From Candidatus Bathyarchaeota archaeon (GTDB lineage Archaea > Thermoproteota > Bathyarchaeia > TCS64), in assembly GCA_963771885.1 (NCBI GenBank), contig CAVYVF010000002.1, positions 384,001 through 448,000 of the forward strand: a stretch of 64,000 nucleotides of DNA, read 5' to 3'. A program made the position numbers. Below, one piece after another: positions 9,001-12,000 of the stretch. Every line of letters starts with the position of its first letter. Within the stretch, counting starts at the first letter, position 1.

Positions 9001-12000
9001 GCTTGGGGGCGCTGGGGGACATTCAACTCACCTGAACGGGTGCGTGATAAAAGAGTTGGGTCCAATGCTTAAAGTATGGTTGCGCGGATTGGAATGTGAT
9101 GAAGGCCCGGGTGAACCTCGTCTGCACGGAGTGCGGCTACGCCTTCCCGGCCGACTCGGACAGAGCGACCTGCGAGCGATGCGGGGGTATACTAGAGTAC
9201 ATCTGGGACGAGGAGTACCTCCGTTCAATCGAGTTCACAGGAGAGCTCAAGTTCTGGAGATACAAGCCCGTCCTCCCCCCCGTGAAGAAGCAAGTCAGCC
9301 TCGGCGAGGGGGGGACGCCGCTTCAGGAAGCGCACAGGCTCGCCGATTCCCTCGAGTTAAAAAACCTCTACCTTAAGGACGAGACACGCAACCCGACGAA
9401 CAGCTTCAAGGACCGCCCGGCTGCGCTCATCGTCTCGGACGCCTCAGGGAAGGGCTTCGGGTCAATCGTCTGCGCCACGAACGGCAACCACGGCGCATCC
9501 GTCGCAGCCTACTCAGCTAAGGCCGACATTTCCTGCCACCTCATCGTGCCCAAGGCGATGGATATCGCAAAGCTCGCCCAGATGATGGTCTACAACGCAG
9601 AGATAGTAGAGTCGGGCGAGACCATAGAGGAGGCGATGGGCAGAGCAAAGACGCTCGAAAAGGAGATGGGCTGGTACCAGGCGACGACAGAGCTAAATCC
9701 ACTCTCCGTCGAAGGGCTAAAGACCATCGCCTACGAGATAGCGGAGCAAAGGGGTGATCCGCTCTGGGTAGTCGCAGCCATGGGGAGTGGCGTTACGATA
9801 AGCTCGCTCTGGAAGGGCTTCAAGGAGCTAAAGACGATGGGGCGTCTCAAGACGTTGCCTCACCTCGTCGGCGTACAGGCGGAGGGGTGCTCACCGATCG
9901 TCTCCGCCTTCGCCTTAGGAAGCGACGAGCCAACACAGCTCACCCGGGGCGAGACTGAGGCTGCGGCGATCAGGGTCTCAAAGCCCGTCTTCGGTGAACT
10001 TGCCCTGCGCTCCCTACGGGAGTCCGGAGGATTCGCTACCTCGATAAGCGACGAGGAAATGCTCGCCGCGGGGCGCGACATCGCAAAATTGGAGGGCATA
10101 TTTGCGGAGCCAGCGAGTGCCTCAACGGTCGCCTGCCTTCGCAGTCTAGTCGAGTCGGGAAAGATCGACCGCCGTGACCGCATCACCTGCCTCATCACGA
10201 GCAGCGGCCTCAAGACCGACGATATCCTACAGAGCCTCACAAAGAGGAAGAGGTCACTCGGCCTTGGTTCCATGCTCACGACGAAAGAGAAGATTATGCG
10301 CCACATATTCGACGGCTCTACATACGGATACGAGATATGGAAGGCAATTGGCAAAGGCATGACGATAGGCGCGGTCTACCAGCACATAGCCGACCTCGAG
10401 GATCGGGGTCTCGTCTCCTCGACGGTGAAGGGAAAGCGCCGGTATTATGAGGTAACCGACAGGGGCAGGCGCGTCCTCGTCGCCCTAGACGATCTGCAAG
10501 TGCTCCTCTAGTAAAAATTATTATAGTTGAAACTATTAGTAGTTGTAACTATAATACTGGTGTTTGTCTTGATGGGCAGCAACGGAAGCAAACTGGACTC
10601 TCGTAGTCTCGCCGCGATGGCGATAATGGGCGCACTAACGACAGTCGTAACGATGCTTGCTTTACCCTTCGCCCCAACGGGCGGTTTCTTCAACTTAGGT
10701 GACGCGATCGTTATGACGACGGCGATCGTCTTCGGCCCAATAGTCGGGGCGGTCTCCGGCGGTGTCGGCTCCGCTCTCGCCGATCTCCTACTCGGCTACA
10801 GCGCCTTCGCCCCGTTCACACTCTTAATCAAGGGGCTAGAGGGTTTCCTCATCGGCACGATCGCCGGAGGCAAGGGCAAGACGTCCCTCGTGAGGCTAGC
10901 GATTGCGTGGGTAGTCGGCGGCGTGACGATTGTCGGCGGTTATTGGTTCGCCGAGGCATTCATCATGGGGCTGGGAGTTCCAGCCGCTAACGCAGAGATA
11001 ATCATTAACATCCCGCAGGCGATAGGCTCAGTAATAGGGATACCGATCGCCCTCGGCGTCAAGTCCCGCCTCAGGCTCTAGCCCACAGACATAATACCCA
11101 CGCAGCCGATTACAAGTCGTGTCCTCAGCCGAGAGAGCCGCCTCACTAATCACGAAGCTAGACCCCCGCGAGCTGAGGATCCTACAAGGCATCGAACTAG
11201 GGATGTCCAAGTACGAGTTTGTCCCCCTCGATAATATAACAAAGTACACTGGTCTGGGCGACGACGAGGTCATCTTCTGGCTCAAGGAGCTTGACAAGAA
11301 GGCTCTCCTCTGGAGGCAGATGGAGGGCTACAACGGGTTCATCCTCAACTACAACAGCTACGACTTGCTCGCCCTGAACGCCCTCGTGAAGGGTGGTGTC
11401 ATCGATGCGTTGGGGATGCCCTTAGGTATGGGGAAGGAGGCGGATGTACTGGAGGCGCTCACTCCCTCGGGAGAGGGTGTCGCCGTAAAGTTTCACAGGC
11501 TGGGTCGCGTCAGCTTCCGTGACACACGCCGGAAGCGTGAGTACCTCTCGGGGCGCCACGGAGTATCGTGGCTCTATCAGTCACGCCTTGCAGCCGAGAA
11601 GGAGTACTACGCCTTATCCCTCGCATTCAACGCAGGCGTCTCTGTGCCTAAGCCCATCTCCCAGAACCGCCACCTCATCGTGATGCAGAGGGTCGAGGGC
11701 CGCCAGTTATCCGAGGTTATTGAGATAGAAGACCCAGAAAGCCTCCTCGACGACATCATCGAGAACGTCCACAAGGCGTACAAGGCGGGGGTTATACATG
11801 CCGACCTTAGTGAGTTCAACATACTCATTACCACCGAGAGCGGTCTCTTCGTAATCGACTGGCCCCAGTACATCCCGCCTAGCCACCCTAACGCCGGGGA
11901 GATACTGGAGCGGGATGTGAAGAACGTGCTCACATTCTTCAGGAGAAAGTACGGCGTGGGAAGGGAACTCGAGGATGCCCTAAGCCTGATTAAGGCTTGA

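Follow-up and report, generated by a model that had tools for sequence, protein, structure and literature searches.

What does a protein do that resembles a threonine synthase (ThrC) over most of its length and ends in a winged helix? The locus studied here, in a 64,000-nucleotide stretch of a Candidatus Bathyarchaeota archaeon genome (the window, along which positions are counted unless stated otherwise), encodes such a protein. An earlier survey had read it as the genome's threonine synthase, doubling as the transcription factor of its own pathway. In our reading the fused gene most likely encodes, rather than the cell's threonine synthase, a DNA-binding switch with a ThrC-like, B6-binding domain at its base; this switch would control the adjoining vitamin-uptake gene.

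Architecture and structural models of the fused protein

The open reading frame and both of its Pfam domains were found again, in agreement with the survey's finding of a PALP–PadR fusion with a complete winged helix. The gene and its parts are as follows.

9099..10511, + strand: fused gene, ThrC-like PLP domain plus PadR-type winged helix (470 aa, ATG start, TAG stop at 10509-10511)
9123..9182, + strand: N-terminal zinc-ribbon-like CxxC...CxxC (C9, C12, C25, C28)
9294..10199, + strand: PALP (fold-type II PLP) domain, residues 66-367 (Pfam, fold search)
9408..9410, + strand: AAG codon of Lys104, the Schiff-base position in NPTNSFKDR
10218..10277, + strand: linker, residues 374-393, modelled as disordered (AF2, pLDDT <50)
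10278..10508, + strand: winged helix-turn-helix, residues 394-470, composed of three helices, a wing of two strands and a final helix at the C-terminus (Pfam, AF2)

Pfam placed PALP at residues 66-367 (E 3.8e-74) and PadR (PF03551) at residues 400-460 (E 9e-10), the latter above the gathering score (38.9 bits, cut-off 27). The architecture had been described as kept in more than 100 relatives, and PF03551 and PF00291 were indeed both present in all 120 homologues among the matches listed (435-495 aa). The junction was as ordinary as claimed, with GC of 0.56-0.63 along the gene without a break (whole contig, 0.551). The zinc-ribbon-like cysteine set is common to the fused family and both canonical-like paralogues of the genome. 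Metatranscriptome contigs from two runs (X1 and X2; 95-99% alike) cover 8913-9378 and 9750-9980, which attests to presence in RNA libraries and is not proof of transcription. The survey's account of NCBIfam matches held in part: TIGR00260 (thrC; 202.9 bits, cut-off 167.1) does cover only 69% of the 470-aa protein (residues 53-375), but a match reaching the winged helix had been overlooked. NF004170 (PRK05638, 'threonine synthase') spans that domain, aligning residues 8-463 with positions 3-441 of its 442-position profile at 376.1 bits, under its cut-off of 421.

The AF2 model of the protein had a mean pLDDT of 89.8 and a flexible linker, and its winged-helix elements comprised helices at residues 391-404, 410-417 and 423-435, strands at 439-444 and 447-452, and a final helix at 454-469. 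The best Foldseek match was the threonine synthase 2zsj_A (E 2.6e-30, TM to target 0.83); the closest solved folds are threonine synthases (2zsj, 1uim, 2d1f and 6cgq), with 33-36% identity to solved ThrC. A homodimer model scored 0.77, against 0.00 for the best of three controls, and made its contacts through the enzyme-like body rather than the winged helix; runs agreed in at least 67% of contacts, with a partner pLDDT of at least 84. Of proteins whose solved structures are one-chain pairs, 20 of 30 attain the mark used for homodimers; of those whose structures show a single chain, 1 of 23 does. This pass may reflect the model's memory, since ThrC dimers are solved, and would speak for likeness more than novelty.

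Paralogues, substrate site and Schiff-base lysine

Three genes of the genome (G000) pass the TIGR00260 cut-off, and the fused gene ranks second. The top gene (282.7 bits) lies on another contig, C7, between homoserine kinase and aspartokinase, in a canonical thrB-thrC-aspartokinase operon. C7 and the contig bearing the fused gene (C2) have equal GC (0.551), orthologues of the C7 ThrC (65-87% identical) were found in four of the five relatives searched, and all three paralogues share a single contig in one relative (G431). Domain annotation of the neighbourhood of the fused gene revealed no thr genes. The survey's premise that the fused gene is the genome's threonine synthase does not hold.

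In canonical ThrC, conserved residues at the substrate-phosphate site are the Arg of NPxRxEGQKT (S203 in the fused protein), the Thr of STGNTS (N128/H131) and the GNAGN loop (S230-G-V-T233). Alignment of 41 fused rows showed S, A, T or V in place of the canonical Arg at 203 in every row (41/41), an Arg that is present in the genome's two other paralogues and in Aquifex and M. tuberculosis ThrC. In the same rows the canonical Thr at 131 has become H/Q/L or M/L/T/I and the N-x-G-N loop S-G-x-T, while G129, N130, E337, S340, T367 and G370 are retained.

The Schiff-base lysine itself, Lys104, is present in the 470-aa protein and universal in its clade (150/150; 121/121 close homologues and 30/30 same-family loci). 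Elsewhere it is replaced. In other families, 30 loci yielded 29 fused ORFs, all with Arg (codons AGG/AGA/CGN; locus L031 had no ORF fitting the search pattern for the fused gene), and a search for SFKDR across these loci (L017-L046) matched only two canonical ThrC neighbours, the fused genes reading SFRDR (first seen in L022). In the 37 representative clusters that have the motif, the position is R in 13, L in 6, I in 5, V in 3, F in 2, T in 2, K in 2, and Y, S, M and A in 1 each, making 35 of 37 non-Lys. The substrate-phosphate residues are gone alike from the Lys and Arg forms, and across both forms the recognition-helix motif GAVYQH is near-invariant. Because there is one copy per genome, Lys and Arg forms are orthologues; and since the lysine is replaced in orthologues, the conserved job of the family cannot be catalysis. 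The Lys clade is one branch (SH-aLRT 100) of a tree whose base is a polytomy of six groups, so that neither an ancestral Lys nor a reversion from Arg to Lys is favoured. Retention of Lys104 suggests that PLP probably forms an internal aldimine in this clade, like that of MocR regulators, and in most other lineages PLP binding must be non-covalent. Strict retention would also be compatible with retained catalysis. The top members of NF004170 (L017, 699 bits) are Arg forms carrying the winged helix, and 'threonine synthase' is therefore probably a misnomer for the very proteins that the model describes.

A palindrome at the S-component and pdxS promoters

Downstream of the fused gene lie a 60-nt spacer and a gene for an ECF-type S-component; further genes of the transport module lie elsewhere in the window.

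10513..10525, + strand: AT-rich stretch aaaaattattata, TATA-box-like, putative S-component promoter element (named from sequence only)
10523..10536, no strand assigned: predicted operator site 1, ATAGTTGAAACTAT, a palindrome perfect except for its 2-nt centre
10540..10551, no strand assigned: predicted operator site 2, TAGTTGTAACTA, its centre 16 bp from that of site 1
10572..11081, + strand: ECF-type S-component, PF07155 (101.3 bits, cut-off 26.7)
24744..25541, - strand: EcfT-like transmembrane component (CbiQ family) of the shared ECF energising module
25538..27271, - strand: double ABC ATPase with a pair of ABC_tran domains, probably EcfA-EcfA' of that module

No PF07155 gene other than that of the S-component was found in the genome. 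The start of the S-component gene is probably the ATG at 10572, not the mechanical TTG at 10527, because palindromes precede the start in relatives. No substrate-specific NCBIfam model matched it, the only matches being weak and mixed (folate, riboflavin and unnamed families). PF07155 includes the B6 transporters PdxU and PdxU2/HmpT, according to the portion of PMC9997740 available to us. In several relatives the next gene after the S-component encodes an AIRS-domain protein that resembles HypE, ThiL or SelD but scores under every cut-off; its orthologue in this genome (46% identity; C2:264709-265722 in contig coordinates) has no palindrome upstream. In one family (f14), an Lrp/AsnC gene and a glutamine synthetase gene lie upstream.

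The spacer holds two copies of a palindrome with the core AGTT-N2-AACT and the 22-bp consensus TATTATAGTT-NN-AACTATAATA. Of 40 loci in which an S-component gene follows, 33 have the strict pattern AGTT-N2-3-AACT in the spacer; it has 42 matches in 6,845 nt of spacers versus 7 in the remaining 158,462 nt. Flanking positions left free in the search are also palindromic and conserved (for example, T at -1 in 27/27). TAGTT-N2-AACTA occurs four times in the 2.46 Mb of the genome, two of them in the S-component spacer. The other two lie before a UbiA prenyltransferase gene and a cupin gene, with a chance expectation of about 1.2. Inspection by eye of 9023-9098, upstream of the fused gene itself, showed no palindrome, and the exact-pattern scan of the genome placed none at the thr operon. 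A one-mismatch scan of 61 genomes of the family gave about as many matches as a backwards-read control, with no wider regulon visible. Five genomes without a close orthologue of the fused gene were searched as a control; two had no PF07155 gene, and in the other three the palindrome preceded 0 of 5 PF07155 genes, a small sample.

The same palindrome marks a vitamin B6 gene. It lies 24-33 nt before pdxS in five of the six genomes where pdxS occurs together with a close orthologue, and the sixth is one mismatch off; these genomes come from two families and three genera only, so the counts are not independent. In genomes that lack a close orthologue, none of the 24 pdxS loci shows it; this class was set by E <= 1e-100 to the 470-aa protein and includes at least six genomes with a distant fused homologue. 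In family f12, a fused homologue with Leu or Met in place of the lysine stands divergently beside pdxS in six of seven loci. The pdxS spacer of genome G270 holds no AGTT-N2-AACT, and the distant Leu-type homologue there probably reads another site. Searches of the host genome (92% complete) for PdxS, PdxT, PdxJ and a PF08543 kinase (pdxK) found none, and the archaeon seems unable to make vitamin B6. Bacterial PdxR regulons comprise pdxST, pdxK and pdxU, as described in the part of PMC5320631 available to us.

The winged helix very probably binds DNA, given that the fused gene and a conserved palindromic operator are found together. The survey had neither a DNA target nor a regulon to offer, and the operator predicted here would supply both. 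Its idea of an enzyme-like protein that is also a DNA-binding regulator survives in its DNA-binding half; the threonine regulon does not, as the operator stands at the ECF S-component and pdxS.

A proposed vitamin B6 sensor and its alternatives

Computation establishes the fused architecture, the paralogy with canonical ThrC, the loss of substrate-site residues and the operator, which is found together with the fused gene at S-component and pdxS promoters. We propose, with a probability of roughly 0.65, that the protein is a PLP-sensing repressor of B6 uptake, with a ThrC-like sensor and a PadR-type winged helix, and an archaeal functional analogue of bacterial PdxR. It would be a one-component transcription factor whose ThrC-derived fold-type II domain senses vitamin B6 as PLP and whose C-terminal winged helix sits, as a dimer, on the two palindromic operators overlapping the S-component promoter. 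The S-component would be a B6 importer of the PdxU kind. With ample PLP, the loaded protein would occupy the operators and block transcription of the importer and, in relatives bearing pdxS, also of the PLP synthase; when PLP is scarce, it would leave them. We infer that the fused protein rather than another factor binds the operator, that binding represses, that the ligand is PLP and that a B6 vitamer is the cargo of the S-component. The sensor pocket would accommodate an amino acid or a PLP–amino-acid adduct equally well.

The clade of the 470-aa protein, as the sole lineage of an otherwise Lys-less regulator family to keep the Schiff-base lysine, invites a further, rather doubtful suggestion: it may be an intermediate between enzyme and regulator, which would bind PLP as an internal aldimine and would either continue to turn over a substrate, making it a true trigger enzyme, or be switched by transaldimination with an amino-compound effector. 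A trigger enzyme is an active enzyme that also regulates, and this clade alone might contain one, with turnover or occupancy in a PLP-dependent reaction on a substrate other than O-phosphohomoserine setting DNA binding. The invariant lysine, the retained PLP-site residues (G129, N130, S340 and T367) and the single well-supported branch would suit such an enzyme; we nevertheless consider it unlikely, as the lysine is missing from orthologues that share both operator and neighbour, and the substrate-phosphate residues are lost in both forms. MocR regulators, moreover, retain their Lys though they are not enzymes.

It is also improbable, to a slightly greater degree, that the protein is a transcription factor for which ligand and cargo are not B6 but an amino acid or other small molecule, sensed and imported. 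The mixed NCBIfam matches of the S-component, the AIRS-domain neighbour and the Lrp/AsnC and glutamine synthetase genes of f14 would fit that reading, but the operator before pdxS, the distant homologue beside pdxS in f12 and the PLP synthesis genes not found in the host genome all argue for B6. Far less probable is a winged helix that serves dimerization or protein contacts while the palindrome belongs to another factor. The dimer model, with its interface in the enzyme-like body and not in the winged helix, speaks for it; against it, the palindrome tracks the fused gene from class to class and at pdxS is confined to genomes with a close orthologue, and the recognition helix hardly varies. 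Least credible is the survey's working threonine synthase that also regulates the threonine pathway, which the TIGR00260 score and the nearest solved structures favour but which the better ThrC in the thr operon, the lost Arg and N-x-G-N loop, a neighbourhood devoid of thr genes and a thr operon at which the exact-pattern scan placed no operator contradict.

The proposed B6 repressor resembles several known systems. It shares with threonine synthase the fold, the N-terminal zinc ribbon (as in the genome's canonical ThrC) and the NPTxSFKDR motif, and differs in its winged-helix tail, its substrate-phosphate site, its lack of thr context and the presence of a separate canonical ThrC. PadR proteins are small and stand-alone, with an N-terminal helix and a ligand bound within the dimer; the above-cut-off Pfam match, the winged helix with its C-terminal helix and the palindromic predicted target recall them, whereas here the winged helix is a C-terminal appendage on a 390-residue sensor. 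In Archaea, the thiamine regulator ThiR joins an enzyme-derived ThiN sensor to a DNA-binding domain and controls transport and synthesis genes. ThiR and the fused protein would both be archaeal vitamin regulators made from a disabled biosynthetic-enzyme domain and a DNA-binding domain, but the vitamin, the sensor fold and the DNA-binding domain differ. The bacterial PdxR/MocR/GabR regulators, in the part of PMC5320631 available to us, likewise combine a winged helix and an enzyme-derived PLP domain in one polypeptide, and the PdxR regulon pairs PLP synthase with a PF07155 B6 transporter, just as the predicted operators here lie at pdxS and PF07155 genes. The form of the 470-aa protein also keeps the PLP lysine, as MocR does. 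MocR carries its GntR-type helix at the N-terminus, joined to an aminotransferase-like sensor of fold-type I, whereas the fused protein has a C-terminal PadR-type helix with no GntR match and a PALP, fold-type II, ThrC-like sensor; most of its orthologues lack the lysine and its host is an archaeon, which makes it a functional analogue and not a member. BzdR-type regulators, as the accessible part of PMC3602430 relates, go back to an enzyme that acquired a DNA-binding domain, and are thus also enzymes turned regulators, but they are bacterial, with a shikimate-kinase-like sensor and no vitamin link.

In the literature searched we found no description of an archaeal regulator of vitamin B6 metabolism, and the MocR/PdxR study (PMC5320631), in the part available to us, covers Bacteria only. 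If our reading is true, the family would fill this gap, with the protein, a 22-bp operator, target genes and a candidate ligand all predicted. It would also correct a widespread annotation, as the fused gene and NF004170 are both labelled 'threonine synthase', and the metabolism reconstructed for Bathyarchaeia and other Thermoproteota may include a false threonine synthase and overlook B6 auxotrophy. The Lys-keeping and Lys-less orthologues form a natural experiment on the passage from PLP enzyme to sensor; if the Lys clade is an intermediate, sister lineages would read one operator through two sensing chemistries.

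A PadR-fused paralogue of threonine synthase

The fused gene and a further ThrC-family paralogue elsewhere in the genome lie as follows.

9099-10511, plus strand: fused gene, an ORF of 470 residues
Contig C23, 369014-369994 (locus L003, 1429-2649), minus strand: third ThrC-family paralogue, a match to NF006050

Pfam places a PALP domain at residues 66-367 of the fused protein (E 3.8e-74) and a PadR domain at residues 400-460 (E 9e-10; 38.9 bits, cut-off 27). Residues 53-375 match the thrC model TIGR00260 with 202.9 bits, where 167.1 are required, GC is continuous across the domain junction with no break, and both Pfam families are present in all 120 homologues among the matches listed. 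The fusion reported in the survey's finding is real, and the figures given for it hold. The winged helix already lies within a curated model, since residues 8-463 align to NCBIfam NF004170 (PRK05638, named "threonine synthase"), with 376 bits against a cut-off of 421.

The same finding had called this gene the genome's threonine synthase, a label that fails. Three of the genome's genes score above the TIGR00260 cut-off, among which the fused gene ranks second, behind a 421-aa protein on contig C7 (282.7 bits) whose gene lies between those for homoserine kinase and aspartokinase. The third paralogue, of 406 aa, scores 619.7 bits against NF006050 (PRK08197; cut-off 303). Its substrate loop is altered (SAGNAA), yet it retains the canonical Arg and Lys; it adjoins a 392-aa ORF and an acetolactate-synthase-like ORF. 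This paralogy is not a binning artefact, because C7 and the window's contig have the same GC (0.551), orthologues of the C7 enzyme (65-87% identity) co-occur with the fused gene in four of the five relatives searched, and in the relative G431 a single contig bears all three paralogues.

The AF2 model of the fused protein (mean pLDDT 89.8, pTM 0.78) has a ThrC-like body joined by a low-confidence linker (residues 374-393) to a winged helix, which a C-terminal helix follows. Among solved structures the closest chains belong to threonine synthases, with 2zsj_A first (E 2.6e-30), and none of the nearest covers the winged-helix tail. A homodimer model scored 0.77, a mark attained by 20 of 30 solved same-chain pairs and 1 of 23 solved single chains; the best of three controls scored 0.00. 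Homodimer runs shared at least 67% of contacts, with partner pLDDT of at least 84, and the predicted interface lies within the enzyme-like body. This result may reflect the model's memory, because ThrC dimers have already been solved. Metatranscriptome contigs from two runs, 95-99% alike, cover parts of the fused gene, which is weak side evidence of presence in RNA libraries and not of transcription.

Substrate site and Schiff-base lysine

We compared the substrate site across 28 fused proteins with Lys at the Schiff-base position (Lys-type; Lys104 in the window's protein), 13 with Arg there (Arg-type) and the two other paralogues of this genome, and used pairwise alignments to the Aquifex and M. 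tuberculosis ThrC; residue roles are those that we take from ThrC structure work. The canonical Arg of NPxRxEGQKT is replaced by S, A, T or V in all 41 fused rows, the Thr of STGNTS by H/Q/L or M/L/T/I, and the GNAGN loop by S-G-x-T. G129, N130, E337, S340, T367 and G370, which we take to be cofactor-holding positions, are retained. Judged by these substrate-site residues, the fused protein is predicted not to function as a member of the threonine synthase family.

Lysine is present in 121 of 121 proteins (the window's protein and its 120 homologues among the matches listed) and at 30 of 30 same-family loci. Of 30 loci belonging to other families of Bathyarchaeia or to other classes of the phylum, 29 gave a fused ORF; the fused genes there read SFRDR rather than SFKDR, and Arg occupies the position in 29 of 29 ORFs. 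The codons are one transition apart (AAG versus AGG/AGA). Each genome has one fused copy, so the Lys and Arg forms (~50% identity) are orthologues. A search with the last 86 residues against 1.84 billion representative proteins gave 98 matches, 41 of them at least 380 aa long, and the 37 motif-bearing long matches have R (13), L (6), I (5), V (3), F, T and K (2 each) or Y, S, M and A (1 each) at this position. Lysine is replaced widely across the fused family, and the family's common function therefore cannot need it; the window's clade is the exception, in which it is strictly kept. Fused proteins form a single clade against canonical ThrC (SH-aLRT 99), as do the Lys forms (SH-aLRT 100), and the base of the fused-family tree is a polytomy, so the tree is compatible with lysine having been either retained or regained.

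The best-scoring members of NF004170 are Arg-type proteins with the winged helix (699 bits at locus L017, 427 bits at L022), so the curated name is probably wrong for the family on which that model was built.

A candidate palindromic operator ahead of an S-component gene

The next same-strand gene encodes an ECF S-component (PF07155, 101 bits), the sole PF07155 gene found in this genome. At 40 of 59 related loci an S-component gene comes after the fused gene, at 13 there is none, and the remaining 6 are too short to tell; at some loci the S-component gene is in turn followed by one for an ABC ATPase or an AIRS-domain protein. The 60-nt spacer between the fused gene and the S-component gene contains two palindromes.

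10523-10536: palindrome site 1, ATAGTTGAAACTAT
10540-10551: palindrome site 2, TAGTTGTAACTA

Both sit right after an AT-rich, TATA-like stretch and ahead of ATG 10572. The mechanical start, TTG 10527, would place them within the coding region; ATG 10572 is the likelier start, because the relatives' S-components start after the palindromes.

Of the 40 loci with an S-component, 33 have the strict pattern AGTT-N2-3-AACT in their spacer, with 42 matches in 6,845 nt of spacer against 7 in the remaining 158,462 nt of the same loci; one-mismatch palindromes occur at several of the other 7 loci. Positions outside the search pattern are also conserved and symmetric, giving the consensus TATTATAGTT-NN-AACTATAATA for Lys-type loci (27 sites) and TAGTATAGTT-NN-AACTATACTA for Arg-type loci (16 sites). 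TAGTT-N2-AACTA occurs four times in the 2.46-Mb genome, twice in the window's spacer. The other two exact sites (C22:363795 and C2:144422) may be chance, since ~1.2 are expected per genome; one lies 27 nt ahead of a gene for a UbiA prenyltransferase, the other 21 nt ahead of a cupin gene, after which comes a radical SAM gene.

At L017 and L019, loci of family f14, the fused gene has an Lrp/AsnC regulator gene immediately upstream, a glutamine synthetase gene is divergent from the fused gene, and the operator reads AAAGTT-TA-AACTTT rather than ATAGTT-NN-AACTAT. Upstream of the window's fused gene is a divergent gene for a small Ssb-like OB-fold protein (8705-9022, minus strand), a neighbour that may be conserved; it also occurs at two Arg-type loci of another family (L028 2904-3293 and L039 1079-1468).

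Vitamin B6 and the proposed role

PF07155 includes PdxU and PdxU2/HmpT, two of the three prokaryotic B6 transporters named in a 2023 survey (PMC9997740). PdxS, PdxT, PdxJ and a PF08543-type kinase were not found in this genome (92% complete), and control genomes were positive for each family. The class sample of 251 genomes includes 85 with a close fused orthologue, 32 with PdxS and 6 with both. Among 30 PdxS loci examined, the palindrome lies 24-33 nt upstream of the pdxS start in 5 of the 6 from genomes with a close orthologue, with a one-mismatch version in the sixth, and in 0 of the 24 from genomes without one. The supporting genomes come from few genera, so these counts are not independent events. 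Six of the 24 genomes without a close orthologue, every one from family f12, carry a more distant fused homologue that is divergent from and adjoins pdxS, with Leu or Met in place of the lysine; the G270 homologue is complete, at 475 aa, and includes the winged helix.

An energising module lies 14 kb from the genome's single S-component gene, and genes for an AIRS/AIRS_C protein (HypE/ThiL/SelD-like, below every NCBIfam cut-off) follow the S-component in several Bathyarchaeia loci.

24744-27271, minus strand: ECF energising module, with genes for an EcfT/CbiQ-like protein and a fused double ABC ATPase
C2:264709-265722: AIRS/AIRS_C gene of this genome
L022 3-668, L029 3689-4369, L033 1-912, L041 3511-4368, L045 355-1377: AIRS/AIRS_C genes at related loci

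No palindrome was seen upstream of this genome's AIRS/AIRS_C copy. As pure conjecture, this protein could be the missing B6 salvage kinase, because the genome shows no PF08543 pyridoxal kinase and the AIRS family is ATP-grasping.

We propose that the fused protein would act as a PLP-sensing repressor. Functionally, its nearest counterpart is the MocR-subfamily regulator PdxR of bacteria, whose regulons include pdxST, pdxK and pdxU (PMC5320631). The fused protein is not a PdxR/MocR member, because both domains, their order and the domain of life differ, and full-text literature searches turned up no paper on a protein of this kind. Its ligand would be PLP, and retention of Lys104 suggests that binding is covalent and reversible in the window's clade. 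The PLP-loaded form would bind DNA, the dimer setting two winged helices on each 22-bp palindrome, and at the importer gene the two sites would overlap both the TATA-like element and the probable start of transcription. The S-component may carry a B6 vitamer, powered by the module at 24744-27271.
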